A stretch of DNA of 64,000 nt from NCBI RefSeq assembly GCF_011045215.1, contig NZ_CP049201.1. One strand, given 5' to 3'. This DNA comes from Escherichia coli. GTDB lineage: Bacteria > Pseudomonadota > Gammaproteobacteria > Enterobacterales > Enterobacteriaceae. Under the pieces are notes generated by a model, which saw only the letters and a program-made list of their open reading frames with translations, had not been told where the DNA came from and searched no databases. The translations under genes and the position numbers were made by a program. Shown here one piece after another: positions 42,044 through 64,000 of this stretch (its first letter is position 1; each line of letters begins with the position of its first letter).

Positions 42044-42119
42044 GCCGATATAGCTCAGTTGGTAGAGCAGCGCATTCGTAATGCGAAGGTCGTAGGTTCG
42101 ACTCCTATTATCGGCACCA
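42044..42119 (+). tRNA. thrW: tRNA-Thr (anticodon CGU)
   Basis: GCCGATATAGCTCAGTTGGTAGAGCAGCGCATTCGTAATGCGAAGGTCGTAGGTTCGACTCCTATTATCGGCACCA, cloverleaf with CGT anticodon and 3' CCA. Confidence 0.9.
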
Positions 42120-42133
42120 TTTAAATCAATAAG

Positions 42134-43297
42134 TTACACATCATTAGTACCTTCCTTATTTTTTGACTGGGACAAATTTGGGACCGATGGGTTCAGGATC
42201 GAGTCTATTTGCCGTGCGTGTTCGGTAAGGTGATTAGGTGCAAGGTGAGCATATCGACGAACCATTTCGATAGACTCCCAGCCTCCCATTTCCTGTAACA
42301 CTGACAACGGGACTCCGGCTTGAACCAGCCAACTTGCCCAGGTGTGTCTCAAGTCGTGAAATCTGAAATCATCAATACCAGCCCGTCTCAGCGCCGCTTT
42401 CCAGGCTGTGTTTGCGTCATACCGCATCTTCCTTACTGTTGGCGCTTTCGTTCCGTCTGGTTTGGTACAGCTTTCCTTGTACACAAATACCCAACGGTGA
42501 TGATTCCCGATTTGTTTTTTCAAAACGCGACATGCAGTATCATTCAGCGCAACGCCAATTGCGCGGTTTGATTTACTCTCTTCCGGGTTTATCCATGCCA
42601 CCCGGCGCTGCATGTCTATTTGTTGCCATTCAAGGTTGATGATGTTCGAGCGTCTTAAGCCTGTTGCCAGTGCAAATTCAACAACAGACTTTAATGGCTC
42701 CGGACATTCATCAATCAGCCTTTGTGCTTCATGGGGCTCCAGCCAGCGGATCCGTTTATTCTTTGGTTGAGGCACTTTAATAATTGGTGCCTTATCCAGC
42801 ATTTTCCATTCACGCTCTGCGGCTCTTAGTAGGGCCTTTATAAATGAAAGATGCGTAGCCTTCGTTGCAACGGACGCTGGTTTTGGCGTGTATTCTGGAA
42901 CAGGTTTCCCTTTTTTTCTGCATGCTTCTGCCCTGAGTCTCCAGTTTTCCTCATGACGCCGGTTCGTCATTTTCTGCATTGCTGAATAAATTTTTGATTC
43001 AGTAATGTCTCTTAGTTGCATTCCTGCGAAATGTTGAAGCCAGAATCCGATCCGGCTTTTGTCATCGTCCAGTGATTTTTTATGTGCTTTCTCTTCAAGC
43101 CACCTGACACACGCTTCCTCGAACGTTATATCAGGTATTTCACCAAGTTTGCTGACCCGCCATGCTTCAGCCTTTAGCTTGTCATGGAGTTCTGTCGCCT
43201 GCCTTTTGTCCTTTGTTCCAAGAGACTGTTTAAATCTTTTACCGTTCGGCAATGTGAAACTGGCGTACCATATTTCACCTCTGCGGAAGAGTGACAT
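42134..43297 (-). CDS. int: phage integrase (tyrosine recombinase, P22-like)
   Basis: 387 aa, C-terminal catalytic R..HxxR..Y region ([11 protein letters not shown]...RYAHL); adjacent to tRNA. Confidence 0.9.
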
Positions 43298-43524
43298 TTT
43301 CTTTCCTCTGTTATGCCATCACCCGCGCTCACCTGGACAGTATGCAGCGGAGACTGAAGAGCCGCAATGCAGGCTTGTCGTGTTGTGAGGTAAGGAGATT
43401 TATTCTTAGTGGGATCTTTGCGTGTTGCCTGAAGACGCCCTGTGCGTATCCAGTTGGTGGCAGTCGGTCTGGATATCTTGAGAAAATGACAGGCCTCATC
43501 GAGTGTGAGGCTGTATGGCTCCAT
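43174..43524 (-). CDS. xis: excisionase
   Basis: 116-aa ORF from [31 protein letters not shown] (HTH), overlapping int 5' end. Confidence 0.6.
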
Positions 43525-43829
43525 TATTTCACCTCTTGCTGTGACATTGTTGAAAAATGGATACCAGCTCGTTGCTGCCAGACGATCCAACCGAGAGTCA
43601 TATCCCATGCCATGTATTCGTTATTGCCGTTTTTTGCTCTCCGACGATCTACTAAGTCACCGAAACGCTTTTCCATGAATAATTCATAAGCTTCGCGTTC
43701 ATCTGGTTCTACTTCCAGAGATAGGAGTGCGATTTCATAAGCACGGCGCTCAATATCGTCTCGCACGTCAAGGCTGCTGATACGCTCTTTAATTTCTTTA
43801 ATCAGTTCTTTGTCGGTAAAAGTGGTCAT
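43524..43829 (-). CDS. hypothetical phage early protein
   Basis: 101-aa ORF tightly packed in early-left operon. Confidence 0.4.
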   Translation of the reverse strand: MTTFTDKELIKEIKERISSLDVRDDIERRAYEIALLSLEVEPDEREAYELFMEKRFGDLVDRRRAKNGNNEYMAWDMTLGWIVWQQRAGIHFSTMSQQEVK

Positions 43830-44191
43830 TATGCTCCAGCCTCCGGTGCTTTTGGCATTACTGCCCAGTGAGTGATATTGACGTTTTCAAGGTCCCCGAC
43901 CTGAAATGTCCACTGCCATTCTCCGGTTTCTTTTTGTCCCCAGGTGTACCAGAGAGAACGCCAGCCAATTAGCCAGCCTTCTCCGTTAGCATCGAATAAC
44001 AAAACACTTTCATTTGCTGGTGGCAGTTCAGTTGACACTGGTATTACTTTGTTTTCCTGTGCTGCACATTTAGCTTCAAGCGCATCGAATTTACGCACCA
44101 GGTATTCAGCATCTGTTTCATTTACTTTCAGATCTCGCGGTACACATCTCCCACGAAGAAACCCTTCCATTTCGAAAACATTCATGCGCAT
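43829..44191 (-). CDS. phage protein, DUF551-like
   Basis: C-terminal ...ITHWAVMPKAPE resembles the DUF551 signature; start/stop overlap with neighbours. Confidence 0.45.
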   Translation of the reverse strand: MRMNVFEMEGFLRGRCVPRDLKVNETDAEYLVRKFDALEAKCAAQENKVIPVSTELPPANESVLLFDANGEGWLIGWRSLWYTWGQKETGEWQWTFQVGDLENVNITHWAVMPKAPEAGA

Positions 44192-44730
44192 TTGCGTAAC
44201 TCCGATAACTCGTTAAAGCGTTCCATAAACATCCCGTAGGCATGGCCCGGTGCCAGTGGAATCACGTTGAACATCTCTGTTGCCGGGATACCTTCCAGTA
44301 CAGGCCAGAAAGAGCCATCATCAAGCCCGAGATCGCGGCGTTCGGTTGCCAGCATGATGAGATCGGCATATTTCACGGGTGTACTCATAACTGGGGGTAA
44401 CCCGTATTTCTCACGGATTACGGCGTCTATTTTTTCTTCCATCCGTTTATAGTCAGGAAGAAGGCGTTTCAGTGGTGCGGGAATGTCCTGGCAATACGCT
44501 TCTGTTGCATCATGCATTAACGCTTCAAAAGCAAATTCCTGCGGCACCAGCTGGCTGCAAAGAACCGCATGTTGGGCGACGCTGTAGAAGTGCGAAAGAT
44601 GACCGGCAAAGCGACAGATATTTGAAAGGGAAACCGCGATATCGTTAATATCGATGTCGTCTTTATTTATCTTGTCATAATAAAAATGCTTCCCGGAAAA
44701 AGTTTTAATAAATGACATTTTGTTCTCCAC
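44182..44730 (-). CDS. HD-domain phosphohydrolase (YfdR-like 5'-deoxynucleotidase)
   Basis: HD motif (LMHDATEAY) and upstream His (HFYSVAQH). Confidence 0.65.
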   Translation of the reverse strand: MENKMSFIKTFSGKHFYYDKINKDDIDINDIAVSLSNICRFAGHLSHFYSVAQHAVLCSQLVPQEFAFEALMHDATEAYCQDIPAPLKRLLPDYKRMEEKIDAVIREKYGLPPVMSTPVKYADLIMLATERRDLGLDDGSFWPVLEGIPATEMFNVIPLAPGHAYGMFMERFNELSELRKCA

Positions 44731-44845
44731 GTATATGCACTACACCGCGCTGAATTCTGGTAAAAGGAAGCCCTCACCATCCGGTGATTATTGAGTTAAT
44801 TACGTTTCCATAAATGCCCCCGCAGGGGCATTTGCAGTAATGAAA

Positions 44846-45670
44846 TCAGGCGGTGAAAGTACCAATAAAGGTTTCTACTTTGCTGTCCTTGAATTTCTCA
44901 ACAAGCAGATCACGAAATTCGTTAGCCATTTCTTCCTGCACCGCCTCCAGCTGAATAATGCGCAGAACCAGTACCGGACGATCGCCAGTGATAATGCTGA
45001 GGCGTAATTTAAACGGACGTTCTTTCAGACCTTCAAACGGAATGCATTTAAATTCAAATGCCACTGGCATAATGTCTTTGGTCTTCGCTTCGACAGACTC
45101 CATCAGGGAGCGTTTGCCGCTGAAGTCATTATCTTCAAAATCAGCGGTCTGGTTTGCTTCAATCGTGATTTTACGGACCGCCGCAGCCGCTTTTGTTGCC
45201 TGAATGGTGTCACCATTAGCATCAAAGCCCACAAGGTAGTCGGCCCAGTCTTCAATCCATTCTGCCAGTGATTTCTGGGAGTTACGCTCGCCATTAACAG
45301 ACAACAGAGCAGAGAACGGTGCTGTCTTTTTCAGTTTGAGAGTGGCGGTGTTATCTGCGTGACCTGGTTCATCAATAGTACCCAGGTTAAGCACACTGAC
45401 GGCACGCATATTATCAGCATCGATAAAGCAGCGGGTGCCTTCATCTGCAAGATCTTTAGAATAACGGGTAAAGTCATCGATGCTGGCAGTGGAAAGCGCA
45501 CCACGGAAACGGAAGCGATTTAAATTAAATTTTTCCAGATCATGAATGCGGAAATTCTCAGGCAATGCCACAGCATCGGCACCAATCTTACTGATAATTT
45601 CATTAACACCCTGAGCAGAAATAAGGGCATGGATTTGATTAATTGCGGTTGCGTCTAAGTTCTGAGACAT
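44846..45670 (-). CDS. phage protein, DUF2303 (YfdQ-like)
   Basis: 274 aa, resembles CPS-53 YfdQ as remembered. Confidence 0.55.
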
Positions 45671-45735
45671 AATAAGTCCTCACTATATAAAGATATTCAG
45701 TGATGAGATAAATAATCAGTTTATTACGAACGATA

Positions 45736-46098
45736 TTAACGACCTGCTGCGCGGAGTTTTCCGTCAGGTTCACCGGCAAGAGTCAGTAATTGTCCCTGGT
45801 CTTCCTGCAGAATAGTCAGGCGACCACCGCGATTGACATACATCGGCGTTTCGGTGGTGTCTTCTTCGGAAATTTTCCCGCGGTTAGTTGGGCGAACATA
45901 TGAGAGTTTGTGTTTGATTTTCACACGGTTCTCATCAAACGGTTCGATTTCCAGATTGAGTGAGACCTTCCCTTTGGTTTTCGTGTTCATCACACCGGAA
46001 GCGACCTCACTGAGAACTGCGCCGATTTTGGTTTCAAATACGCCGCCGTCCAGCTCCCCGATAAATGCCTGCACATCAGTACTGCGTTCGCTAGCCAT
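45736..46098 (-). CDS. hypothetical phage protein
   Basis: 120-aa ORF from MASERSTDVQ; the longer listed ORF extends upstream without support. Confidence 0.4.
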   Translation of the reverse strand: MASERSTDVQAFIGELDGGVFETKIGAVLSEVASGVMNTKTKGKVSLNLEIEPFDENRVKIKHKLSYVRPTNRGKISEEDTTETPMYVNRGGRLTILQEDQGQLLTLAGEPDGKLRAAGR

Positions 46099-46536
46099 TT
46101 TGCTGCTCCTCATCATATCGACCCTGCAAGGTCGGTTGGTTTCTCCACAAAACAGAGAAGAACACCTGCGGTGGCAGCCGCCCGGATGGATTGGGTTATG
46201 AGCCCGTCGTCCGGTGATGCTCTTCTCTGTTTTGCAAAAAAGGACGGTACCAGCCGGAAGCAAGGGTACAAACTGGTACCGCCAGGACTACACACAGCAT
46301 AAAGTTGTGGTGCCGGGTGCCTCCCGGTGCCTGGCGAAGGTTGCACACCAGGCGGGTGGGTATCCACAGAAGGTCGACTGTCAGCCTCAACCTTAACCCG
46401 CGTGCGCTGAGCCGCATTCACCACAACGCTAAGGATTCTCTTTGGTTGAAAATACTTAGCTGTTATGTGCCTGTCTTTTCACCACTTCAGGCTCGGTGGT
46501 ATCCTTTTAAGCCCGTATACATAAAAGGAAAATCAA

Positions 46537-46782
46537 ATGACTTTTGATGAAAAAGAACTTGATAATGCAATTAATAAAATCATCGTAACGTCGCTCTTTT
46601 CCTGTCTCAGCGACACTCAGCAGAAACAGTTCTACGAATCGGCTTTCAACATGATCGAGCGTTGTTGTTTCTGCGATGCCGACGAGTTACCTGAAAAAAT
46701 CAGGAAACAGTTGGCTGATGCTCTTCGAGTGCGACTTTCTGACCAATTTTCTGAAATGTGCTCTCCGAATTTGGACAAATAG
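46537..46782 (+). CDS. hypothetical small protein
   Basis: 81-aa ORF with GGA-type RBS upstream; overlaps a minus-strand ORF, so only one is likely real. Confidence 0.3.
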   Translation: MTFDEKELDNAINKIIVTSLFSCLSDTQQKQFYESAFNMIERCCFCDADELPEKIRKQLADALRVRLSDQFSEMCSPNLDK

Positions 46783-47168
46783 AAAAAGGCCATTTCCATT
46801 CAGGGTCTGATGGAAATACTTCAGCCTGTTCCAAAGCACGGCGTAAAGAGAACACAACTCCAGCCATAATCTGATGTTTCCCATTGGTCCAGCTATCGCC
46901 GCTCTGATCTACAGGGGCGGCTATGTCGTATGACCAAACGACTTCACAGTTATTGTTTAAAATCTGGACTTTCATTTCATACACCTGCTTTAACATGAGT
47001 GCCTAGTGGCACAACATGACTCAACGAATCATCCTGGATTTCATATGCCCCAGGCGGCTACTTCGTGGGCGTCCTGCCTGTTCGTTGTTTCTTTTGGGTA
47101 CATTATGTATCTCAAAGGTACATTGTCAAGTATAAAAAAACCTGCCGAAGCAGGTTCATAAACATTGA

Positions 47169-47843
47169 TTAGGCTTTGATTTTGTATCTTCTTGGTTTTC
47201 CTGAGAAAATCACTGTACCAATTATAGAGCAATTACCGTTGATCTTAATGTAAGGCTCAGGCCAGTTTGGGTTTAACGCTTTGAGATAACGCTGTGTCCC
47301 ATCTTCTATCAACCTTTTGAAGGTGGTTTCGCCTGTATCGTGCATCAATGCAATAACGTCGTCACCGTGGCAGGCAGGTACTTCAGGATCGACAAAAATC
47401 ATGTCTCCCGGGCGGTACTCATCAATCATTGAATCACCTATCACCCGCAAGATATAAGTCATTTCCCCACAGGGTACAGGGCAGGGATACGTTTCTGCTG
47501 TGCTCAAATCAACCTCAGAATATCCAACTTCTTTCCATGCTCCGGCCTGTACCCATGATATGACAGGGACTAATGTGATTTGTTTATTAGTGATTGAAAC
47601 ATCAGGTTTTTTTGTGATGTTCGTTGTCTGGTGTTCTTGATCGAGCCATCCGACAGGCAGGTCGAAACATTTTTCGATGTGTCGTGCCATGCTGTCACCG
47701 ATATTTTTAGTAGCACCATCTCCCATAAACCTGCTGGTCTGGGTTGGCTCGCGATCAATCATAGTGGCAAAGGAAGAATTCCCGCCAACACCATCTCTCA
47801 GTTTTCTGGCGTTAGACCGCCGGATGTCATGGATTGTTTTCAT
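47169..47843 (-). CDS. cI: phage repressor CI (HTH plus S24 LexA-like peptidase domain)
   Basis: 224 aa; C-terminal S24 domain with Ser (GDSM) and Lys; divergent from cro. Confidence 0.85.
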   Translation of the reverse strand: MKTIHDIRRSNARKLRDGVGGNSSFATMIDREPTQTSRFMGDGATKNIGDSMARHIEKCFDLPVGWLDQEHQTTNITKKPDVSITNKQITLVPVISWVQAGAWKEVGYSEVDLSTAETYPCPVPCGEMTYILRVIGDSMIDEYRPGDMIFVDPEVPACHGDDVIALMHDTGETTFKRLIEDGTQRYLKALNPNWPEPYIKINGNCSIIGTVIFSGKPRRYKIKA

Positions 47844-47933
47844 AACGAAATTAAAACCCTTGTACCGTTAAGGTACAAGTATCTTGAAGGTTCATTTCAA
47901 TCATGTAATATGTACACCGGAGGTACATATTGT
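47844..47933. promoter_or_regulatory. cI/cro divergent promoter-operator region
   Basis: Inverted repeats with GTAC cores: cttgtaccgttaaggtacaag (47857-47877) and atgtacaccggaggtacat (47911-47929). Confidence 0.5.
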
Positions 47934-48134
47934 ATGAAAGCGTATTGGGACTCTTTAACCAAAGAACAGCAGGGCGAGTTGGCCGGAAAAGTTGGCTCAA
48001 CACCTGGCTACTTACGGCTGGTTTTCAATGGCTATAAAAAAGCCAGTTTTGTGCTGGCTAAAAAACTTGAGCAATGCACGTCAGGTGCAATTACGAAATC
48101 TGACTTAAGACCGGATATCTATCCGAAAGATTAG
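47934..48134 (+). CDS. cro: Cro-like repressor
   Basis: 67-aa ORF from MKAYWDSL, divergent from cI; the longer listed ORF overlaps cI antisense. Confidence 0.65.
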   Translation: MKAYWDSLTKEQQGELAGKVGSTPGYLRLVFNGYKKASFVLAKKLEQCTSGAITKSDLRPDIYPKD

Positions 48135-48165
48135 CAGAACACTTTCAATTTTTAACCACAGAACG

Positions 48166-48729
48166 ATGAGGCTAACCGTGGGTAAGCATCACTGGAAAAT
48201 AGAAAAACAGCCTGAGTGGTACGTGAAAGCTGTCAGAAAAACTATCGCGGCGTTGCCGGGTGGTTACGCTGAAGCGGCTGACTGGCTCGATGTAACAGAA
48301 AACGCTTTATTCAACCGCCTTCGTGCAGATGGCGATCAGATTTTCCCGCTGGGATGGGCAATGGTTTTACAGCGTGCTGGTGGCACTCACTTCATTGCTG
48401 ATGCTGTGGCGCAGTCTGCAAATGGCGTCTTTGTGTCTCTTCCTGACGTCGAGGATGTGGACAACGCCGATATCAACCAACGCCTGCTGGAAGTCATTGA
48501 ACAGATCGGCAGTTATTCAAAACAGATTCGTTCAGCAATTGAAGACGGTGTAGTGGAACCGCATGAGAAGACAGCAATTAACGACGAGCTGTACCTCTCA
48601 ATTTCGAAGCTGCAGGAGCATGCAGCACTGGTCTACAAAATTTTTTGCATTTCAGAAAGTAATGACGCCCGCGAGTGTGCAGCTCCGGGCGCCGTGGCGT
48701 GTCGTGACTGTGGAGAAACTAACGCATGA
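48166..48729 (+). CDS. phage regulatory protein (CII-like / YdaT-family position)
   Basis: 187 aa immediately after cro; product assignment by position only. Confidence 0.4.
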
Positions 48730-49073
48730 ACAGTTTAACAACACACTACCGTCGCTCGCAACTGATTGCGCTTCCTGTACCGGGTGGAAAAGCGAAGGTG
48801 GAGTATTGCTATGCAGTAAATGTACCAGGTGACAGGGAAATTGTAACCCACAGCTTTGCAGAGTGGGCTGTGGGTGATTTCAACCGGCAGAAGGAGACAG
48901 TCCTTTGCGACAAGTTAACCGCTGGTTCAAAGATCACTACGGAGTGCCCGTCAGAGTCATTCGTTGGGAGCCGGAAACACAACGTGTTATCTACCTCCGC
49001 GAAGGCTATGAGCATGAGTGCTTCAGCCCGCTCGAACAGTTTCGTCGTAAATTCAGGGAAATAGAGGTCGGTC

Positions 49074-50015
49074 ATGAGCACTAAATTAACCGGCTATGTA
49101 TGGGATGGTTGCGCTGCATCAGGCATGAAATTATCCAGCGTGGCAATTATGGCCCGCCTGGCTGATTTCAGTAATGACGAAGGTGTGTGCTGGCCATCAA
49201 TTGAAACCATTGCCCGCCAGATTGGCGCGGGAATGAGTACCGTCAGAACGGCTATCGCACGGCTGGAAGCAGAAGGCTGGTTAACGCGTAAGGCGCGTCG
49301 CCAGGGTAACCGCAATGCGTCGAATGTTTATCAGCTTAACGTTGCGAAGCTTCAGGCAGCGGCATTTTCTCAACTGTCAGATTCTGACCCGTCAAAATCT
49401 GACGCATCAAAATCTGACCCGTCAAAATTTGATGCGTCGAAATCTGGCAAAAAAGCGGGTTTTCACCCGTCAGAATCTGGCGGGGATCCGTCAGTAAAAT
49501 CAAAACATGATCCGTCAGATAAAAAAACTTCTCGTCCGGACGCTTCGCAACCGGACACGCAGACGGCTGAACAGGAGTTTTTAACTCGCCATCCTGATGC
49601 GGTTGTATTCAGCCCTAAAAAGCGCCAGTGGGGAACGCAGGATGATTTGACCTGCGCACAGTGGCTCTGGAAAAAAATCATCGCCCTGTACGAGCAGGCC
49701 GCCGAATGTGACGGCGAGGTGGTTCGTCCCAAAGAACCGAACTGGACAGCCTGGGCAAACGAAATTCGCCTGATGTGTGTGCAGGATGGTCGTACTCATA
49801 AACAAATCTGCGAGATGTACAGCCGCGTCAGTCGCGATCCGTTCTGGTGCCGTAACGTGCTCAGCCCGTCGAAGCTGCGGGAAAAATGGGATGAGCTTTC
49901 CCTGCGCTTATCGCCGTCCGTCAGCACGTACACCGAAAAACGCGAAGACCCGTACTTCAAAGCCAGTTACGACAACGTGGACTACAGCCAGATCCCGGCA
50001 GGATTCAGGGGGTGA
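49074..50015 (+). CDS. replication initiation protein (lambda O-like) with internal iteron-encoded repeats
   Basis: HTH N-terminus (GMSTVRTAIARLEAEGWLT), repeated SDPSKSDASKSDPSKFDASKS segment. Confidence 0.7.
   Translation: MSTKLTGYVWDGCAASGMKLSSVAIMARLADFSNDEGVCWPSIETIARQIGAGMSTVRTAIARLEAEGWLTRKARRQGNRNASNVYQLNVAKLQAAAFSQLSDSDPSKSDASKSDPSKFDASKSGKKAGFHPSESGGDPSVKSKHDPSDKKTSRPDASQPDTQTAEQEFLTRHPDAVVFSPKKRQWGTQDDLTCAQWLWKKIIALYEQAAECDGEVVRPKEPNWTAWANEIRLMCVQDGRTHKQICEMYSRVSRDPFWCRNVLSPSKLREKWDELSLRLSPSVSTYTEKREDPYFKASYDNVDYSQIPAGFRG
49375..49445. repeat. tandem about 18-bp iterons, candidate phage replication origin
   Basis: tcaaaatctgac(c/g)c(g/a) repeated 4 times inside the O-like gene. 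Confidence 0.5.
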
Positions 50016-50506
50016 GCATGAGTCTTTTGAATGACGTTCAGAAATTCATTGAAGCCCATCCGGGCTGTACTTCCGGAGATATTGCGGATGCTTTTGCCGG
50101 TTACTCACGGCAGCGCGTTCTGCAGTCAGCAAGCAAGTTACGTCAGAGTGGGCGTGTGGCTCACCGTTGTGAAGGAGATACACGCAGACATTTCCCGCGC
50201 CTGACTGAGAGAGCGCAGGAACCGGAACCACAACCAGTTCGTGAAACCAGACCTGTGCGCAATTTCTATGTCGGCACTAACGATCCCCGTGTGATTTTGT
50301 GCCTGACCCGCCAGGCGGAAGAACTGGAGTCCAGGGGCTTATACCGTCGTGCTGCAACCGTGTGGATGGCGGCATTCCGTGAAAGCCACTCCCAGCCAGA
50401 ACGAAACAATTTTCTGGCGCGTCGTGAGCGGTGCTTACGGAAAAGCAGCAAGCGCGCTGCATCGGGTGAAGAGTGGTATCTGTCAGGGAATTACGTGGGG
50501 GCTTAA
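50012..50506 (+). CDS. phage protein with PerC-like C-terminal domain
   Basis: AEELESRGLYRRAATVWMAAFRES resembles the PerC/Pch signature. Confidence 0.45.
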   Translation: MSMSLLNDVQKFIEAHPGCTSGDIADAFAGYSRQRVLQSASKLRQSGRVAHRCEGDTRRHFPRLTERAQEPEPQPVRETRPVRNFYVGTNDPRVILCLTRQAEELESRGLYRRAATVWMAAFRESHSQPERNNFLARRERCLRKSSKRAASGEEWYLSGNYVGA

Positions 50507-51159
50507 TGAGTAATAAATATTGCCAGGCGCTGGTGGAACTGCGGAACAAACCAGCCCATGAACTGAAGGAAGTGGGCGATCAGTGGCGCACGCCGGACAA
50601 CATTTTCTGGGGAATTAACACCCTGTTTGGCCCGTTTGTTCTGGATCTGTTCACTGACGGTGATAACGCCAAATGTGCCGCGTATTACACGGCGGAAGAC
50701 AACGCGCTGGCGCATGACTGGTCAGAACGTCTTGCGGAGCTTAAAGGTGCTGCCTTTGGTAATCCCCCATACAGCCGCGCCAGTCAGCATGAGGGGCAAT
50801 ACATCACCGGCATGCGTTACATCATGAAACATGCCAGTGCCATGCGTGATAAGGGCGGGCGCTATGTTTTCCTGATCAAAGCTGCCACCAGCGAAGTGTG
50901 GTGGCCGGAAGATGCAGATCATATTGCTTTTATTCGCGGGCGTATTGGTTTTGAACTGCCTGTCTGGTTTATCCCGAAAGACGAGAAGCAGGTACCGACA
51001 GGAGCTTTTTTCGCTGGTGCTATTGCTGTTTTTGACAAGACCTGGAAGGGACCGGCAATCAGCTACATCGGGCGCGATGAACTTGAGGCATGTGGTGAGG
51101 CGTTTCTGGCGCAGGTTCGCCAGCAGGCGGAAAAACTGGTCAGGGAGATGGCGGCATGA
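50506..51159 (+). CDS. phage DNA N6-adenine methyltransferase (Dam-like)
   Basis: NPPY motif (FGNPPYSRA); start at MSNKYCQ. Confidence 0.75.
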   Translation: MSNKYCQALVELRNKPAHELKEVGDQWRTPDNIFWGINTLFGPFVLDLFTDGDNAKCAAYYTAEDNALAHDWSERLAELKGAAFGNPPYSRASQHEGQYITGMRYIMKHASAMRDKGGRYVFLIKAATSEVWWPEDADHIAFIRGRIGFELPVWFIPKDEKQVPTGAFFAGAIAVFDKTWKGPAISYIGRDELEACGEAFLAQVRQQAEKLVREMAA

Positions 51160-55425: not shown

Positions 55426-55487
55426 AATATAAACCTATTAACTCCTACAGTAAAAAACGAATAATACGACTTTGGGATTAAAAATCA

Positions 55488-55516
55488 TTAACGCGGTCCG
55501 CAAAAATTCTTGTAAT
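55488..55516 (+). promoter_or_regulatory. candidate late promoter (PR'-like)
   Basis: TTAACG -35 and TGTAAT -10 with 17-bp spacer, upstream of terminator and holin. Confidence 0.35.
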
Positions 55517-55548
55517 CTGTTAAGAGTGGTTACTTCGCCACACAGCTT

Positions 55549-55582
55549 AAACCCGCCGTCGAGCGGGTTTTGTCGTTTTTGT
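55549..55582 (+). terminator. intrinsic terminator (tR'-like, Q target)
   Basis: aacccgc-cgtcga-gcgggtt hairpin followed by ttttgtcgttttt. Confidence 0.45.
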
Positions 55583-55721
55583 TGCTGGGGATTCGTTGGG
55601 CCTGGCCTATCCAGCAGTTATCCATTGGTTCGGCTCTTTGACGTTTCCGCTTCTGATTTGCGGTACATGATGTTCCCTCAATTTGCACCTGCTGTATCAG
55701 CGAGGTGAGAGATAACTACAA

Positions 55722-56048
55722 ATGCCTCATAACCCAAATACTTGGCTGGACTTGGTCCAGAGCTGGTGGCGTGGAGACACACCGCTGGGCGCAGTGATTA
55801 TGTCGATTGTTATGGCTGGTTTGCGTATCGCCTACTTTGGTGGTGGTGGCGGCTGGAAGCGAAAAACGCTCGAGATTTTGCTCTGTGGCGCTCTGACTCT
55901 GACTTTTGCATCCGCGCTTGAGTATGTCGGATGGCCTAAATCACTTTCTGTTGCCATTGGTGGTGGCGTTGGGTTGATCGGTGTCGATGCTATTCGTGGG
56001 GCTGCAATGAGAGTAATCGGTAATAAGTTTGGTGGCTCTAAGGAGTAA
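55722..56048 (+). CDS. S: holin
   Basis: 108 aa, hydrophobic helices, charged C-terminus; directly upstream of endolysin. Confidence 0.6.
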   Translation: MPHNPNTWLDLVQSWWRGDTPLGAVIMSIVMAGLRIAYFGGGGGWKRKTLEILLCGALTLTFASALEYVGWPKSLSVAIGGGVGLIGVDAIRGAAMRVIGNKFGGSKE

Positions 56049-56051
56049 TTT

Positions 56052-56528
56052 ATGCAGGTACTAAATTCCCAGCGTAAAGCTTTCCTCGATATGGTGGCAT
56101 GGTCAGAAGGAACGGATAACGGGCGACAACCGACACGTAACCACGGTTATGATGTTATTGTTGGCGGCGAACTGTTCACTGATTACTCCGATCACCCTCG
56201 CAAACTTGTCACGCTAAACCCCAAACTCAAATCAACAGCCGCCGGGCGTTATCAGCTTCTTTCACGCTGGTGGGATGCTTACCGTAAACAGCTTGGTTTG
56301 AAAGACTTCTCCCCCAAAAGCCAGGACGCAGTGGCATTGCAGCAGATTAAAGAGCGTGGCGCTTTACCGATGATTGATCGCGGTGATATCCGTCAGGCTA
56401 TCGATCGTTGCAGCAATATCTGGGCGTCATTACCCGGCGCTGGTTACGGTCAGTATGAACATAAAATCGGTGACCTGATTGCCCGATTCAAAGAGGCTGG
56501 CGGGGTGGTAAATGAAGTTGAGCTATAA
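56052..56528 (+). CDS. R: endolysin (lambda R-like lytic transglycosylase)
   Basis: Matches lambda R as remembered (NSQRKAFLDMVAWSEGTDNGRQPTRNHGYDVIVGG...). Confidence 0.9.
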   Translation: MQVLNSQRKAFLDMVAWSEGTDNGRQPTRNHGYDVIVGGELFTDYSDHPRKLVTLNPKLKSTAAGRYQLLSRWWDAYRKQLGLKDFSPKSQDAVALQQIKERGALPMIDRGDIRQAIDRCSNIWASLPGAGYGQYEHKIGDLIARFKEAGGVVNEVEL

Positions 56529-56973
56529 GCTGGTTATCGTTGCTTTCTTCGTTACTGTCATTGGTTCTTTCATCTGTTCAGTGAATCGTTACCACAATAA
56601 AGCCATTGAATACAAAATGCAGCGTGATGAGAATGCTATGGCATTAGATTCGGCTATGGCGACCATCTTTGATATGCAGAAGCGTCAACGTGACGTAGCA
56701 GAACTTGACGCCAGATACACAAAGGAGCTTGCTGATGCTAATGCGACTATCGAAAGTCTCCGTGCTGATGTTTCTTCTGGGCGTAAGCGCCTGCAAGTCG
56801 CCGCCACCTGTGCAAAATCAACGACCAGAGCCAGCGGCATGGGCGATGGAGAAAGCCCAGGACTTACAGCAGATGCTGAATTCAATTATTACCGTCTCCG
56901 AAGTGGAATCGACAGGATAACCGCACAGGTTAATTACCTACAGGAATACATCAGAACTCAATGCATGAATTAA
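56512..56973 (+). CDS. Rz: i-spanin Rz
   Basis: 153 aa, N-terminal TM, coiled-coil body; overlaps R stop. Confidence 0.8.
   Translation: MKLSYKLVIVAFFVTVIGSFICSVNRYHNKAIEYKMQRDENAMALDSAMATIFDMQKRQRDVAELDARYTKELADANATIESLRADVSSGRKRLQVAATCAKSTTRASGMGDGESPGLTADAEFNYYRLRSGIDRITAQVNYLQEYIRTQCMN
56735..56920 (+). CDS. Rz1: o-spanin Rz1 (lipoprotein embedded in Rz, +1 frame)
   Basis: Lipobox GVSAC followed by Pro-rich segment; start codon choice uncertain. Confidence 0.6.
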   Translation: MLMRLSKVSVLMFLLGVSACKSPPPVQNQRPEPAAWAMEKAQDLQQMLNSIITVSEVESTG

Positions 56974-57582
56974 AAGAGGCAGATTGATCGTGTTTTCGAA
57001 GTGTTATACCACGCCCGTTCTGTTAATTTGGCAAAATCTGTTCTGATGCAATGAGTATCGAAAGATTTATTGGACTGGTTGCTTTGGTTATCACTGTTAT
57101 CGCTGGAGTTGTTGGCCTAGGGCGTATCCGTGGCACTAGTAAAAGAAGAGGTTAAAACTGCTCTGTTATACACTGAAGTTAACGCAGCGGCTAAGCACTC
57201 AGCAGCAGGACACCGTGTAGAGGCAACGGAAGAGGCCAGAAATATACAGCAGACTATTAACCATATTCCTGGTGACTCTGTTGAGCGCGGTATGCATAAG
57301 AAATACAAACGTACAATTTGAAGTGGTATATTTTTCTTGTTAGTAGATGAATATAATATACCACACAGAATACGATATAATTATTGCTCATGCTTACCTA
57401 AATATGAAAAACAATAAAGTTATAAGTAGACAAGTGTTTTGTTACTTTTAATAATTGATGTGATGTATATATTAAGATTGAAAAATTTAATCATTCTTTC
57501 CACATATAAATTAAGTGGTTCCCTTAGCTTGTCATTTTTGATGATAAGTGAGAGAATATGAACATTATATGATGGAGATAAT

Positions 57583-57894
57583 ATGTCAAACATAAAAATC
57601 AAACAAGCTATTGAAAAGATTGCGGAGTTCAGAGCAGCATCTGCTGCGATGGCTGATGCTCACATGGTTCTTATTACAGAGCTATTGAACTCAATTGAGG
57701 ATATCCGCAAAAACTCTGGTGATAATCTCTCTGAGTTTGAAAAAGGACAGGTTGCTCTCTACATAAAAATTAGCCCAGTTGTGAAAAATGGAATTTCGAG
57801 TATTGAAAAATATAATGAGTCTTTAAGTTCAGACTATGTTGAGGCTATGAACTCCTTATCTAAAATTGCGGGAGGGAATTCAAATGTCGATTGA
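57583..57894 (+). CDS. hypothetical protein (first gene of AT-rich three-gene cargo operon)
   Basis: 103-aa ORF with RBS, predicted helical; AT-rich. Confidence 0.4.
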   Translation: MSNIKIKQAIEKIAEFRAASAAMADAHMVLITELLNSIEDIRKNSGDNLSEFEKGQVALYIKISPVVKNGISSIEKYNESLSSDYVEAMNSLSKIAGGNSNVD

Positions 57895-58270
57895 AGATGT
57901 TGGAAGCATCCTTGATAGATTAAAAGTAGCCAGGATCGAAAATAAAAAAATTGAAGAGTCAGCTGGAAAAGCAGAGGAAAATGCTGTTAACTCTAAGCAT
58001 ACTGATGGTAAAACACGAAGCGCCTTAACTATTACGTTTCTCTGGTTCTTTTTTTGCCTTCTTATTTTTAGCTGTCTTTTTGTTCTTTGGTATAATAATT
58101 CTGTTGTGAATTGGGCTTTAGAGTTAAAGAGCAAAGGTGTTGATGATTACGTTCAATATTTAAAGCCACTCGAGCTGGAAAAGGTATTGTCAATAATGAT
58201 TACTGCCCTTGGTACTTCATTAGGATTTATAATTGGGTATTATTTTAAGGATAAAGAAAATCATTCTTAA
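57884..58270 (+). CDS. hypothetical two-TM membrane protein
   Basis: Start MSIEDVG overlapping upstream stop; two hydrophobic helices (LTITFLWFFFCLLIFSCLFVLWY, VLSIMITALGTSLGFIIGYYF). Confidence 0.4.
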   Translation: MSIEDVGSILDRLKVARIENKKIEESAGKAEENAVNSKHTDGKTRSALTITFLWFFFCLLIFSCLFVLWYNNSVVNWALELKSKGVDDYVQYLKPLELEKVLSIMITALGTSLGFIIGYYFKDKENHS

Positions 58271-58315
58271 TATAGAGTTATCTCTAAAGATAACGAATTT
58301 TAATAGGAGGGTAGA

Positions 58316-58618
58316 ATGTCTGAACTGAATTATGAAGCAATAGGTCGCTGCAAAATCCTTAATGAAAAGATCAAAGATCTTCATGCTGAACGAATGAAAG
58401 CTATTGGTGATTTACGTACTGCTGTCTATGCCCTTCATCAGAAAGGGAATGTAAACCTCATCCCACCAGAAATTGTTGAATTCAACCCCCAATCGCTTAC
58501 ATCCCTTGTAGAGAAGGTTGGTCACTATGATGGTGAGCTGATGCGAGCTGTACATGAGTACAACAACTGGTGTGTAGAAGCAGGCGAGAAACCCGTAAAA
58601 CTTATAAAGCTAGACTGA
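58316..58618 (+). CDS. hypothetical protein
   Basis: 100-aa ORF with GGAGG RBS; followed by hairpin plus T-run at about 58630-58665. Confidence 0.4.
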   Translation: MSELNYEAIGRCKILNEKIKDLHAERMKAIGDLRTAVYALHQKGNVNLIPPEIVEFNPQSLTSLVEKVGHYDGELMRAVHEYNNWCVEAGEKPVKLIKLD

Positions 58619-58703
58619 AACAACAAATTTATGCAAATCATTAGCCTCGCACATGCGGGGCTTTTTTATGCGCACCACACATGCACATCAAAGAGAGTCT
58701 TCA

Positions 58704-59054
58704 ATGCCGCCACGAATCCCAAAAGCCTGCCGTGTTCGCGGTTGCCGCCATACCACGACTGACCCGTCAGGCTACTGCGAAAGCCACAAAAGCGAAGGCT
58801 GGAAGCAATACAAACCTAGACAATCCCGTCATCAGCGCGGCTACGGTTCGAAGTGGGACAGTATCCGCGCGCGTGTCCTGAAGCGTGACAAAGGCCTGTG
58901 TCAGTTATGTCTGCGTGCCGGTGTGGTGCGTGAGGCGAAAGCCGTTGACCACATCATCCCTAAAGCGCATGGCGGCACTGATGCCGACTGTAATCTGCAG
59001 AGTCTGTGCTGGCCGTGTCATAAGGCGAAGACGGCCCGTGAACGGCTGAAGTGA
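58704..59054 (+). CDS. HNH endonuclease (terminase-associated)
   Basis: Cys-rich HNH motif (CQLCLRAG...VDHIIPKAHGGTD...NLQSLCWPCHKAK). Confidence 0.8.
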   Translation: MPPRIPKACRVRGCRHTTTDPSGYCESHKSEGWKQYKPRQSRHQRGYGSKWDSIRARVLKRDKGLCQLCLRAGVVREAKAVDHIIPKAHGGTDADCNLQSLCWPCHKAKTARERLK

Positions 59055-59179: not shown

Positions 59180-59674
59180 ATGGCTGGAACGGCGGGGCGT
59201 TCCGGGCGTCGCCCCAAGCCAACGGCGCGCAAGGCGCTGGCCGGAAACCCCGGCAAGCGAGCCCTGAACAAAGATGAACCTGTTTTTACGCCCATCAAAG
59301 GTGTTGAGCCACCGGAGTGGTTCGCAGAAGAAGATCTCCCTCTCGCCACGATCATGTGGCAACTGACAACCAAAGAACTCTGCGGTCAGGGCCTGCTGTG
59401 CGTGACTGACCTGGCGGTACTTGAGCGGTGGTGCGTGGCCTATGAGTTCTGGCGACGTGCCGTGAAAAATATTGCCAGCCAGGGCAACACCATCACCGGT
59501 GCAATGGGCGGCAGGGTCAAAAACCCGGAGCTGACCGCCAAGAAAGAACAGGAGTCCGAGATGAGCAGCACGGGGGCAATGCTCGGACTCGACCCCAGCA
59601 GCCGCCAGCGTCTGATAGGCCTGGCGGGGCAGAAGAAAGCCACTAACCCGTTTCTGAAAATCATCGAATCATGA
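59180..59674 (+). CDS. terS: terminase small subunit (P27/HK97 type)
   Basis: Start [14 protein letters not shown] typical of P27-family TerS; immediately upstream of terL. Confidence 0.75.
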
Positions 59675-61404
59675 GCCGGAAATCTTACCCCAACGTAAAT
59701 GCTGCCAATCAGTATGCCCGTGATGTCGTGCGGGGAAAGATTGTGGCCTGCCATTTTGTGATTCAGGCCTGCCAGCGCCATCTTGATGACCTGATGGCGG
59801 AAAAAAGTAAGTCGTTTCGTTACCGCTTCGACAAGGACCTGGCTGAACGGGCCGCCAAATTTATTCAGCTGTTGCCGCACACCAAGGGTGAGTGGGCATT
59901 TAAGAGGATGCCCATCACGCTGGAGCCGTGGCAGCTCTTTGTGATCTGCTGCGCGTTTGGCTGGGTCAATAAAGGCTCCCGGCTGCGCCGCTTCCGTGAG
60001 GTGTATACCGAAATCCCCCGTAAGAACGGCAAATCGGCAATCTCTGCCGGTGTCGCCCTGTATTGTTTTGCCTGTGATAACGAGTTTGGCGCGGAAGTGT
60101 ATTCCGGTGCCACGACAGAGAAACAGGCGTGGGAAGTCTTTCGCCCGGCGCGACTGATGTGTAAACGCACACCCATGCTGACGGAAGCGTTCGGGATTGA
60201 GGTTAACGCCTCAAACATGAACCGTCCGGAGGATGGCGCGCGGTTTGAACCGCTGATCGGTAACCCCGGTGATGGATCATCACCCCACTGTGCGGTGGTG
60301 GATGAATATCACGAGCACGCCACCGATGCGCTTTACACCACGATGCTTACCGGGATGGGGGCGCGACGTCAGCCACTGATGTGGGCCATTACTACTGCCG
60401 GGTACAACATTGAGGGGCCGTGCTACGACAAACGGCGGGAAGTTATCGAGATGCTCAACGGTTCGGTACCCAACGATGAACTGTTCGGGATCATCTATAC
60501 CGTTGACGAAGGTGACGACTGGACCAACCCACAGGTGCTGGAAAAAGCCAACCCGAATATCGGGGTGTCGGTTTACCGTGAGTTTTTGTTAAGTCAGCAA
60601 CAGCGTGCGAAAAATAACGCCCGTCTGGCAAACGTCTTTAAAACAAAACACCTCAATATCTGGGTGTCGGCGCGTTCGGCGTATTTCAACCTGGTGAGCT
60701 GGCAGAGCTGCGAGGATAAATCACTGACTCTTGAGCAATTCGAGGGGCAGCCGTGCATTCTGGCCTTTGACCTGGCGCGTAAACTGGATATGAACAGCAT
60801 GGCGCGACTTTATACCCGCGAGATTGACGGTAAAACGCATTACTACAGTGTGGCCCCGCGTTTCTGGGTACCGTATGACACGGTGTACAGCGTCGAGAAA
60901 AATGAAGATCGCCGGACAGCCGAACGCTTTCAGAAATGGGTGGAAATGGGCGTCCTGACCGTTACCGATGGTGCAGAGGTGGATTATCGCTACATCCTCG
61001 AAGAGGCCAAAGCGGCGAACAAAATCAGCCCGGTCAGCGAGTCACCCATCGACCCCTTCGGGGCGACCGGGCTGTCACATGACCTTGCTGATGAAGACCT
61101 GAATCCCGTCACTATCTTCCAGAACTTCACCAATATGTCCGATCCGATGAAAGAGCTGGAAGCAGCGATTGAATCGGGACGTTTTCATCATGACGGCAAT
61201 CCCATCATGACCTGGTGTATCGGCAACGTGGTCGGCAAAAACATGCCGGGTAACGATGATGTGGTGAAACCCGTCAAAGAGCAGGCGGAAAACAAAATTG
61301 ACGGTGCAGTTGCGCTGATTATGGCGGTTGGCAGAGCCATGCTGTACGAGAAAGAAGACACGCTGTCTGATCACATTGAGTCCTACGGGATCCGCTCGCT
61401 TTAA
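59671..61404 (+). CDS. terL: terminase large subunit
   Basis: 577 aa, ATPase Walker A-like (IPRKNGKS) and C-terminal nuclease region. Confidence 0.85.
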
Positions 61405-61415
61405 CTGAGGTAATT

Positions 61416-61598
61416 ATGATCATGCTGATTCTCGCGCCTCTGGTGGGCGTGCTGGGGGTGCTTTTGCTGGCGTATGGTGCCTGGCTGATTTATCCCCCTG
61501 CGGGGTTTGTTGTTGCCGGGGCGTTGTGCCTGTTCTGGTCGTGGCTGGTGGCGCGATATCTCGACCGTACACAGCTGTCTGTTGGTGGAGGTAAATAG
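61416..61598 (+). CDS. small membrane protein
   Basis: 60-aa ORF with two hydrophobic helices between terL and portal. Confidence 0.3.
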
Positions 61599-62839
61599 TG
61601 TTCTTTTCGGGATTATTTCAACGAAAAAGTGACACACCGGTGACCACGCCAGCAGAGCTGGCGGATGCTATCGGGCTGTCATACGACACCTATACCGGAA
61701 AGCAGATCAGCAGCCAGCGGGCCATGCGACTGACGGCGGTTTTTTCCTGCGTCAGGGTGCTGGCAGAGTCGGTCGGGATGTTGCCCTGCAATCTGTATCA
61801 CCTGAACGGCAGCCTGAAGCAGAGAGCCACTGGCGAACGTCTGCATAAGCTGATCTCCACGCATCCCAATGGCTATATGACGCCGCAGGAGTTCTGGGAG
61901 TTGGTGGTCACCTGTCTGTGCCTGCGGGGAAACTTTTACGCCTACAAAGTGAAAGCATTTGGCGAAGTGGCTGAATTGCTGCCCGTCGATCCCGGCTGTG
62001 TGGTACCGAAGCTTAACAGTAGCTGGGAGCCGATCTATCAGGTCACATTCCCGGATGGCTCCACGGATGTACTGAGCCAGGAGGATATCTGGCATGTGCG
62101 TACGCTGACGCTGGACGGACTGGTGGGGCTGAATCCCATCGCCTATGCCCGCGAGGCAATATCGCTGGCAGCTGCGACCGAAGAGCACGGGGCCAGACTG
62201 TTCAGCAATGGCGCGGTGACGTCGGGTGTGTTGCGTACAGAGCAGACGCTGTCAGATCAGGCTTATGAGCGCCTGAAGAAAGATTTTGAGGAGCGTCACA
62301 CCGGGCTTGGCAATGCTCACCGCCCGATGATCCTTGAGATGGGGCTGGACTGGAAGTCGATGGCGCTGAACGCCGAGGACAGCCAGTTCCTGGAAACCCG
62401 CAAGTTTCAGCTTGAAGAAATCTGTCGTCTGTTCCGTGTGCCATTGCACATGGTGCAGAACACCGATCGTGCCACCTTCAACAATATCGAAGAACTGGGG
62501 CTGGGATTTATCAACTATTCACTGGTGCCGTATCTGACCCGCATTGAGCAGCGGATCAACACCGGACTGGTACGAAAAAGTAAGCAGGGCGTTTATTACG
62601 CCAAATTTAACGCCGGGGCGTTACTGCGCGGGGATATGAAGTCCCGTTTTGAAGCCTACGCCACCGGGATTAACTGGGGAATTTACTCTCCCAATGACTG
62701 CCGCGACCTGGAAGATATGAATCCGCGTCCCGGTGGTGATGTCTATCTCACACCGATGAACATGACCACGAAACCCTCCGATGGCAGTAAAGCCGGTAAG
62801 CAGAAGGATAACGCCAATGCAGACGAAACAACGTCTTGA
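61598..62839 (+). CDS. portal protein (HK97 family)
   Basis: 413 aa, position after terL and before prohead protease. Confidence 0.8.
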   Translation: MFFSGLFQRKSDTPVTTPAELADAIGLSYDTYTGKQISSQRAMRLTAVFSCVRVLAESVGMLPCNLYHLNGSLKQRATGERLHKLISTHPNGYMTPQEFWELVVTCLCLRGNFYAYKVKAFGEVAELLPVDPGCVVPKLNSSWEPIYQVTFPDGSTDVLSQEDIWHVRTLTLDGLVGLNPIAYAREAISLAAATEEHGARLFSNGAVTSGVLRTEQTLSDQAYERLKKDFEERHTGLGNAHRPMILEMGLDWKSMALNAEDSQFLETRKFQLEEICRLFRVPLHMVQNTDRATFNNIEELGLGFINYSLVPYLTRIEQRINTGLVRKSKQGVYYAKFNAGALLRGDMKSRFEAYATGINWGIYSPNDCRDLEDMNPRPGGDVYLTPMNMTTKPSDGSKAGKQKDNANADETTS

Positions 62840-63467
62840 TGTACCGCTGAGTCTGAAATCTGTCAGTGACTCCGGTGAGTTTGAAGGGTATGGCTCCGTC
62901 TTTGGTGTAAAGGACAGCCACGATGATGTGGTGATGTCCGGGGCATTTGCTGCTTCCCTGCGGGCGTGGAGTGACAGAAAAGCGTTACCTGCGCTGCTCT
63001 GGCAGCACCGCATGGATGAACCCATCGGTGTTTACACCGAAATGAAGGAAGACGATGTCGGGCTTTACGTCAGGGGACGGTTGCTTATTGATGATGATCC
63101 CCTCGCAAAACGCGCACATGCACACATGAAGGCCGGTTCGTTAACCGGCCTTTCTATTGGGTACGTCCTGAAAGACTGGGAATACGACCGGAGCAAAGAA
63201 GCCTTTCTGCTGAAAGAAATCGACCTCTGGGAAGTCAGCCTGGTGACGTTCCCGTCTAACGACGAGGCGCGGATCAGCGACGTCAAGAACGCACTGGCCC
63301 GCGGGGAAATCCCCGAACAGAAAAAAATCGAAAGAGTCCTGCGTGATGTCGGACTCTCCCGTACCCAGGCCAAAGCATTCATGGCCGGGGGCTATGGCGC
63401 ACTGTCCCTGCGCGACGCTGAGGATGTGGGCTCTGCACTGAATGCACTGAAAAATCTGAACTTCTAA
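62817..63467 (+). CDS. prohead maturation protease (HK97 family)
   Basis: Start MQTKQRLD; overlaps portal 3' end; about 216 aa. Confidence 0.75.
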   Translation: MQTKQRLDVPLSLKSVSDSGEFEGYGSVFGVKDSHDDVVMSGAFAASLRAWSDRKALPALLWQHRMDEPIGVYTEMKEDDVGLYVRGRLLIDDDPLAKRAHAHMKAGSLTGLSIGYVLKDWEYDRSKEAFLLKEIDLWEVSLVTFPSNDEARISDVKNALARGEIPEQKKIERVLRDVGLSRTQAKAFMAGGYGALSLRDAEDVGSALNALKNLNF

Positions 63468-63481
63468 TCAGGAGAAATACG

Positions 63482-64000
63482 ATGGCGGTTGATATTAAAG
63501 ATGTCGAACAGGTCGCGCAGGAGCTGCAGCAGAAGTTTGACGACTTCAAAGCAAAGAACGACAAGCGCGTGGATGCGATTGAGCAGGAAAAAGGCAAGCT
63601 TGCCGGGCAGGTGGAAACCCTGAACGGGAAACTCAGCGAGCTGGAAAATCTCAAAAGCGACCTTGAAAAAGAGCTGCTTGAGCTGAAACGTCCGGCTGGT
63701 GGAGCGCAAAATAAACTGGCCACCGAGCATAAAGAGGCGTTTGTGGGCTTCCTGCGTAAAGGCCGTGAAGACGGTCTGCGCGATCTGGAGCGTAAGGCAT
63801 TGCAGGTGGGTACCGATGAAGACGGTGGCTACGCCGTGCCGGAAGAACTGGATCGCAACATTCTTAACCTGCTGAAAGATGAAGTGGTGATGCGTCAGGA
63901 AGCCACGGTGATCACCGTTGGCGGTTCCGACTACAAAAAACTGGTGAATCTGGGCGGTACGGCTTCCGGATGGGTGGGGGAAACGGATACGCGATCCCAG
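63482..64000 (+). CDS. major capsid protein (HK97 fold), 3' end beyond window
   Basis: ATG at 63482 with AGGAG RBS; coiled-coil delta-domain-like N-terminus; open to window edge, so absent from the complete-ORF track. Confidence 0.65.
   Translation, partial: MAVDIKDVEQVAQELQQKFDDFKAKNDKRVDAIEQEKGKLAGQVETLNGKLSELENLKSDLEKELLELKRPAGGAQNKLATEHKEAFVGFLRKGREDGLRDLERKALQVGTDEDGGYAVPEELDRNILNLLKDEVVMRQEATVITVGGSDYKKLVNLGGTASGWVGETDTRSQ

Follow-up and report, generated by a model that had tools for sequence, protein, structure and literature searches.

Positions 42044-64000 of the 64,000-nucleotide stretch of Escherichia coli DNA analyzed here (contig NZ_CP049201.1; the whole stretch is termed the window) very probably represent the left arm of a temperate SfV-like phage integrated at the tRNA gene thrW, with attL at one end and the capsid gene at the other. 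The element is a new mosaic combination of this known type and not a new kind of phage. The SfV-like phages (the class after Allison 2002, as used in PMC3603311) are recognized as a class of lambdoid Myoviridae, which occupy a small number of sites in E. coli (PMC3603311). All of the SfV-like features that can be sought within the window are present, namely the thrW attachment (att) core with Int and Xis, the early gene layout, cos packaging and an HK97-type head. The DNA match to SfV (NC_003444), a serotype-converting phage of Shigella flexneri, begins at 42074, the first base of the att core. Of the 33 SfV proteins tested, 24 match at 87.7% identity or above and a further two at 28-31%, and for Rz the match is confined to the first 50 residues. 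The element shares with SfV the thrW core, the gene order and the cos junction, with Xis 98% and orf28-33 98-100% identical, and a search of a phage collection groups it with SfV, SfIV, SfII and E. coli myoviruses such as vB_EcoM-720R4.

Substantial differences from SfV occur at several places. The replication initiator is only 30% identical, and SfV orf37-38 are replaced by YmfM and a DUF4222 protein in a block (48762-49940) that includes most of the initiator gene. SfV Q, orf47 and a DNA methyltransferase give way to a different Q and a KAP NTPase (53694-55695). Within 56579-58704 the Rz/Rz1 genes differ from those of SfV and a three-gene cargo operon is additional, and from 61343 onward the genes for portal, protease and capsid belong to the E. 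coli e14 type, the portal being 28% identical to that of SfV. The SfV gtr serotype-conversion cassette would sit at the attR end, outside the window. SfV-like relatives carry a Mu-like contractile tail rather than the siphovirus tail of lambda and HK97.

Prophages in WS0115A (NZ_CP035882), VTB97420v (NZ_CP178690) and D8 (NZ_CP195962) cover 87-90% of the 22 kb at 97-99% identity at the same insertion site, and none has the full combination seen in the window. The KAP NTPase is common to the window, WS0115A and D8 and the cargo operon to the window and VTB97420v (100%), whereas WS0115A differs in Rz and cargo, and in VTB97420v Dam is missing and the early-left region carries an IS1. The best whole-region match among 5426 complete E. 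coli genomes has 90% coverage at 98.4% identity, and the closest locus from exact-protein look-ups (L045; loci of relatives carry L numbers) is collinear at 99.07%. The best match in the phage collection is vB_EcoM-720R4 (ON470603), on which the literature searched has nothing; it covers 65% of the region at 97.1% identity with the same head module and a Mu-type tail, and differs in the immunity region, Q, cargo and left end, its record being without an annotated integrase.

The left boundary of the element is defined by the following features.

42044-42119, plus strand: thrW, tRNA-Thr(CGT), the integration target (ARAGORN; Rfam tRNA, 71.8 bits)
42074-42119, plus strand: attL core of 46 bp, ATTCGTAATGCGAAGGTCGTAGGTTCGACTCCTATTATCGGCACCA, an exact match to the published core
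42134-43297, minus strand: tyrosine integrase, 387 amino acids (Pfam Phage_integrase, E=3.5e-48, over the whole profile)
43174-43608, minus strand: excisionase (HTH_17), 144 amino acids (Pfam), 98% identical to SfV Xis

The thrW gene is the sole tRNA gene that ARAGORN finds in the window and lies just downstream of proA (40676-41929). The integrase open reading frame (ORF) begins 15 bp past thrW, in keeping with the description in an earlier sequence-only reading of an integrase abutting the 3' end of tRNA-Thr. The core is identical to the attP of SfV and of P22 and aligns also with the attR of WS0115A, and the likeness to the attR of relatives reaches 42137, beyond the core. The 46-bp core sequence is printed for SfI, SfII, SfV, SfX and P22 (PMC3636060), and SfI, SfIV and SfV are reported with a common 46-bp attP (PMC3851460). 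Because attP carries the last 46 nucleotides of thrW, the tRNA gene is rebuilt at attL. The integrase is 98.7% identical to SfV Int and 90% identical to P22 Int, gapless over all 387 amino acids, so the label of a P22-type site given in that reading is correct. The phage is integrated via a P22/SfV-type tyrosine integrase. The exact integrase protein occurs in 5870 blocks of a public assembly collection, and all six of the places shown adjoin proA. An exact search finds a single copy of the core in the window, which places the right end of the prophage outside it, as had also been stated. A divergent Escherichia lineage, raised by a flank match of about 98%, was considered as the source of the DNA and rejected, as the exact ProA occurs in 8981 blocks of the assembly collection. 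In other E. coli (L030-L039) thrW is empty, or is occupied by islands with a different 404-amino acid integrase and a primase, or by SfV-like prophages in all states of decay.

The lysis, packaging and head genes occupy the right part of the visible element.

55549-55570: terminator-like hairpin between the Q region and the holin gene, at the site expected for a Q-dependent late terminator
55722-56048, plus strand: holin S (Pfam), 94.6% identical to SfV S
56052-56528, plus strand: endolysin R, 96.2% identical to SfV R
56512-56973, plus strand: Rz (Pfam)
56735-56920, plus strand: embedded Rz1 lipoprotein in the +1 frame of Rz, with lipobox LGVSAC
58704-59054, plus strand: HNH endonuclease adjoining cos (Pfam HNH), 92% identical to SfV orf53
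59112/59113: cos position, where the two ends of the linear SfV genome record meet
59180-59674, plus strand: small terminase subunit TerS (Pfam Terminase_4), 98% identical to SfV
59671-61404, plus strand: large terminase subunit TerL (Pfam, both TerL domains), 98% identical to SfV
61416-61598, plus strand: YmfR
61598-62839, plus strand: portal (Pfam Phage_portal)
62817-63467, plus strand: S78 prohead protease (Pfam Peptidase_S78)
63482-64000, plus strand: major capsid protein, N-terminal 173 amino acids, cut by the window end (Pfam Phage_capsid)

The right end of the SfV record (to 37074) and its left end (from 1) abut at 59112/59113 with 2 and 0 mismatches in the respective flanks, and the meeting of the record ends between HNH and TerS with near-identical flanks marks this position as cos. 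TerL aligns to its SfV counterpart over residues 1-566 of 577, up to a mosaic breakpoint, and is one residue (Q28H) off the common allele. Many E. coli prophages have identical alleles of the portal, protease and capsid N terminus, and the match of 60268-62005 to K-12 e14 is at 96.3% identity. The Pfam assignments from HNH through Phage_capsid bear out the HK97-type head module proposed earlier. Downstream of Rz, 57042-57321 on the plus strand holds a short ORF for a hydrophobic peptide followed in another frame by a 63-amino acid ORF whose C terminus matches phrog_1026 (Rz-like spanin), and this part of the cargo region resembles the remains of a small gene after a frameshift.

Two other kinds of element were weighed against the SfV-like assignment. 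The integrase at 90% identity and the identical att core might point to a P22-like (Lederbergvirus) podovirus prophage, and this reading, to which we give next to no weight, is refuted by the head module, which is of the HNH/Terminase_4/HK97 type with cos instead of a pac terminase, gp1 portal, gp8 scaffold and gp5 coat. P22, a Salmonella phage, is a podovirus with headful packaging, and its likeness to the element is limited to the integrase and thrW core; gene content apart from int and attP matches SfV, and the annotated early, head and tail genes of P22 belong to different families, the sequence comparison itself having covered int and attP. P4-like or primase-bearing islands with a different integrase do occupy thrW in other E. 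coli (L030, L031 and L035), and a phage satellite or integrative island is the other candidate for such a site. It is extremely improbable here and is refuted by gene content, as the element has terminase, portal, protease, capsid, lysis and replication genes of its own.

To the left of the SfV-like element's immunity region, the accessory genes form a leftward block.

43524-43829, minus strand: yfdT-like gene, 98-100% identical to SfV (orf28-32 block)
43829-44191, minus strand: DUF551 protein (Pfam), 98-100% identical to SfV (orf28-32 block)
44182-44718, minus strand: HD/YfbR-like protein, 5'-deoxynucleotidase YfdR (Pfam E=3e-5, just under the cut-off; the YfdR name is from RefSeq relatives)
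44846-45670, minus strand: DUF2303 protein YfdQ (Pfam E=8e-92)
45739-46098, minus strand: YfdP, 98-100% identical to SfV (orf28-32 block)
46700-46996, minus strand: orf33 homologue, 98 amino acids, at the position of lambda N, 100% identical to SfV orf33 (phrog_3195, unknown function)

The proposed resemblance of this region to CPS-53 is borne out at the DNA level, 43468-46117 being 96.7% identical to yfdT-yfdP of K-12 CPS-53. The orf33 homologue has no Pfam match and no arginine-rich N terminus, no nut-site search having been made, and the Pfam scan shows no N homologue among the prophage genes. In the 600-bp gap between yfdP and orf33, where RefSeq relatives have a "frameshifted hypothetical protein," there is a full-length Rfam match to the small RNA STnc100 (46234-46449, minus strand) that is below threshold at 38.4 bits against a gathering score of 47. 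The tRNA is the only Rfam match above threshold, and sub-threshold microRNA matches fall on the iterons described below or are due to chance.

The immunity genes and the replication initiator follow.

47169-47843, minus strand: CI-type repressor (YmfK type), 224 amino acids, LexA-like S24 (Peptidase_S24 E=1.5e-26), 99.6% identical to SfV CI
47844-47933: cI-cro intergenic operator/promoter region with TGTAC..GTACA palindromes; the SfV record marks a putative operator region
47934-48134, plus strand: Cro (YmfT type), 66 amino acids, 100% identical to SfV Cro
48178-48729, plus strand: CII(CP76)-like YmfL (Pfam; PHROGs)
48726-49064, plus strand: YmfM homologue, a cell-division inhibitor by K-12 e14 annotation (Pfam; PHROGs)
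48905-49084, plus strand: DUF4222 ORF (Pfam; PHROGs)
49074-50015, plus strand: O-like replication initiator, 313 amino acids, with an N-terminal winged helix (Pfam HTH_36; phrog_391 "replication initiation O-like," E=1.6e-135)
49362-49484, plus strand: putative origin of about seven 15-bp iterons, TCAAAATCTGACSCR, inside the initiator gene (repeat search)

The repressor keeps the residues of LexA-type self-cleavage: in an alignment with lambda CI and LexA, whose reference sequences were entered by hand, Ala100-Gly101 corresponds to the cleavage site and Ser138 and Lys176 to the catalytic dyad. The cI-cro intergenic region is identical to that of SfV in 95 of 101 aligned columns, and 47023-49307 is 98.0% identical to K-12 e14 from ymfK to the 5' part of ymfN. 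An initiator gene with internal iterons is the lambda-type origin arrangement, and the order int-xis...cI-cro-cII-O...Q-S-R-Rz is kept as in lambda. The immunity and replication region had been called lambda-like, a description that holds for the layout (cI-cro-cII-initiator, with iterons inside the initiator gene) and not for the sequences, which are of the SfV/e14 type; no homologue of N or lambda P was seen, and Pfam finds no match to Phage_lambda_P, DnaB or DnaC among the prophage genes, the initiator being followed directly by PerC/YfdN.

The remaining early-right genes lead to the late antiterminator.

50012-50506, plus strand: PerC/YfdN (Pfam)
50506-51159, plus strand: Dam methyltransferase (Pfam), 99.5% identical to SfV
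51156-51482, plus strand: protein consisting of a LexA DNA-binding domain only, 108 amino acids (Pfam), 96% identical to SfV
51479-51868, plus strand: RusA (Pfam), 99% identical to SfV
51888-52685, plus strand: KilA-N (Pfam)
52693-53682, plus strand: DUF968/HNHc_6 (Pfam), 99% identical to SfV
53697-54065, plus strand: late antiterminator Q of the PF06530 type (Pfam E=2.3e-51)

The genes in 50012-53682 are 88-99.5% identical to SfV orf40-45, and 49307-50772 is 98.1% identical to CPS-53 (yfdO-yfdN-yfdM). Q gives no match with SfV Q and belongs to a different family. The LexA-domain protein at 51156-51482, conserved in SfV as orf42, is without the S24 peptidase part and, going by its domain content, might bind SOS boxes without being cleavable.

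From the integrase to position 64000 the ORFs form one unbroken series of phage genes. All 35 genes are full length compared with SfV or RefSeq-annotated relatives, Pfam finds no transposase among the prophage genes scanned, and 42044-64000 is syntenic gene for gene with SfV and complete relatives, with no space left for an insertion sequence (IS); the sequence-only reading was right that no IS insertions or obvious frameshifts are visible in the essential genes here, and Pfam supports every domain that it named, the HD match being just under the cut-off. In WS0115A, VTB97420v and D8 a second exact 46-bp core lies 41.8, 40.8 and 41.7 kb from the first, and between the cores are genes for the connector, tail terminator, sheath, tube, tape measure, Mu-type baseplate, fibers and the pinE invertase. 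Nineteen of 20 loci with an identical portal or cargo operon run on into the same contractile-tail genes. Neither the SfV-like membership nor this kind of tail had been recognized in the sequence-only reading. By comparison with these relatives, the element is likely to be complete, with a length of about 41 kb and attR about 19-20 kb past the window end. The prophage is probably also inducible, the chance of this being put somewhat lower than that of completeness; UV induction has yielded SfIV, a phage reported to be closely similar to SfV (PMC3851460).

Several observations weigh against an intact SfV-like prophage. The right 19-20 kb, with the tail genes and attR, lies beyond the window; no helicase loader or N-type antiterminator is identified among the prophage genes; the operator region has 6 mismatches with SfV over 101 positions; and the exact TerL allele (Q28H) is not on record. 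Degraded relatives are also present at thrW: L034 is without everything from yfdQ to Q, L037 is a fragment, L028 is without terL through the tail assembly genes, and L090 keeps only int, xis and a rep fragment. These raise the alternative of a defective (cryptic) prophage that has an intact left arm but a deleted or disrupted late or right part, and so makes no particles. Many thrW-linked relatives are such remnants, the IS1 of VTB97420v lies in its early-left region, and K-12 e14 and CPS-53 are deletion derivatives of the same SfV-like family. With 35 of 35 genes full length in the visible part, and the three closest relatives with the same left arm complete and each with attR, a defective element is unlikely, though far from negligible, and completeness is preferred.

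The two K-12 prophages e14 and CPS-53 (KplE1) lie at other sites (icd and argW) with other integrases, and the element in the window holds intact versions of the genes that are broken in them. The 96-98% DNA matches identify both as remnants of the SfV-like family. The match to e14 ends and that to CPS-53 begins at the same base of the initiator gene, 49307. The 5' fragment left in e14 and the 3' fragment left in CPS-53 complement each other exactly, each being one half of the gene. In e14 the junction reads ...CAGGGT/GATGG and joins terL at 60268 (the ymfN fusion), in CPS-53 it reads CATCATA/ACCGC and joins 46117 to 49307 (yfdO), and in L028, as also in L131, it reads CAGGGTAACCG/GATCC and joins rusA at 51682. 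The break point is located at the end of the initiator DNA-binding domain, 55 bp left of the iterons. In relatives, eight distinct deletion junctions are all compatible with a break at GGGT/AACC (T49307/A49308), within GGGTAACC (window 49304-49312), a count that is inflated by the gathering of loci with patterns beside the break point, e14, CPS-53 and L028 having been found free of that bias. The junctions (loci L028, L046, L047, L090, L131, L140, L169, L170, L172 and L178) each have a different partner, with 2-8 bp of microhomology where the partner is readable, and four are rightward and four leftward.

IMG/VR was scanned with each flank of the break point, 23 bases on the left and 30 on the right. 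The left flank is intact in 116 of 120 matches, and the 4 exceptions break at the site (the e14 type, the rusA type, L090 into a head-closure gene and L140 into an unknown partner). The right flank is intact in 129 of 134 matches, with 5 exceptions breaking at the site against 4 different left partners (the CPS-53 type, 44209, 44402 and one unknown). It is the only mid-gene site in the region with both sides replaced and every partner different. An invertase-type crossover at AACC/NN, secondary sites of Int, Chi protection and a fork barrier at the origin were each rejected, as none fits all eight junctions. A BstEII-like cut at GGTNACC was likewise rejected, GGTAACC being present at the L178 partner site and 3 nucleotides from the e14 partner site and not at the others. 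No paper linking ymfN and yfdO was found in the literature searched. One reading, to which we give roughly even odds, is that the site is a deletion hotspot accurate to the nucleotide, where site-specific breakage of the DNA close to the origin has converted SfV-like phages into cryptic prophages again and again.

Two insertions of low GC content interrupt the late side of the element.

54094-55425, minus strand: cargo slot 1, KAP P-loop NTPase, 443 amino acids, GC 0.33 (Pfam KAP_NTPase E=6e-70; PADLOC PDC-S20 E=9e-177)
57583-58618, plus strand: cargo slot 2, three-gene operon for proteins of 103, 128 and 100 amino acids, GC 0.36 (PHROGs 21707, 20796 and 4827, all of unknown function)

The KAP NTPase gene is placed after Q and before the late promoter region and holin gene, on the opposite strand. 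The Walker A (residue 39, GAWGTGKT) and Walker B (residue 181, VIIIDE) motifs are intact, weaker PADLOC matches are to PifA and QatA, and there is no hydrophobic or membrane segment. The corresponding slot of relatives is occupied by Kiwa (KwaAB), by a pair of nucleoid-associated proteins, by a three-gene cluster or by a transglycosylase. On its domain and position the KAP NTPase is a candidate anti-phage gene. A 2025 preprint (PMC12632615) reports protection against phage, in tests in E. faecalis, by KAP NTPases of Enterococcus and of contigs from the gut microbiome; these have transmembrane or effector regions, whereas the window protein is without them. PDC-S20 is not mentioned in the literature searched.

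The slot 2 operon sits between Rz and HNH with its own promoter-like sites and a terminator (58643-58662), and its 128-amino acid protein apparently has two transmembrane helices, as judged by eye. Only one of 5426 complete E. coli genomes has the operon (VTB97420v, 100% identity), and many draft assemblies carry it; IMG/VR loci with this cargo are 97-99.8% identical. Neither the KAP NTPase nor the membrane cargo protein has relatives among solved structures. A further slot at the attR end of relatives (the gtr slot in Shigella phages) holds differing cargo, with Avs2 in WS0115A (L001 6804-11258), a hypothetical protein and a RES-domain protein in VTB97420v (L002 37916-42116) and two unknown proteins in D8 (L168 37686-39967).

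A life cycle can be proposed in which the regulatory steps are based on homology to SfV, lambda and HK97. The LexA-like CI would keep the divergent early promoters off in the lysogen, and DNA damage would lead to RecA-stimulated self-cleavage of CI at Ala100-Gly101. Two operons would thereby be released, the early-left one with xis, int and accessory genes and the early-right one with cro, the cII-like gene, the initiator with its origin iterons, Dam, RusA and Q. Q is then predicted to read through the terminator at 55549-55570 into the lysis, HNH/terminase, head and tail genes, and the DNA would be cut at cos (59112/59113). The two low-GC insertions, after Q and after Rz, would be cargo expressed in the lysogen and probably anti-phage in function.

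Upstream of the prophage, window positions 1-26000 form a variable island that is covered to at most 63% by any complete E. coli genome, and a Flag-2 flhA remnant is found within the stretch 25001-42100. The island includes the following genes.

2879-3424: Ail/Lom outer-membrane protein
4019-4594: LuxR-type regulator
4799-5665, minus strand: IS3-family transposase
7212-9611: VgrG, with T6SS effector genes (Tle1-like, M35 peptidase), then fadE

SfV-like prophages at thrW are common in E. coli, the exact integrase being found in thousands of assemblies, and the family has reportedly been described since 2002. The prophage itself is ordinary, and only its cargo genes and the initiator-gene break point might merit further study. 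As a likely active prophage it could move the KAP NTPase and the three-gene operon, which lie in slots that hold other defense systems in relatives. The element also provides intact counterparts with which the broken genes of K-12 e14 and CPS-53 can be compared, and the recurrent break point, if it truly reflects specific cutting, would be relevant to the domestication of prophages.

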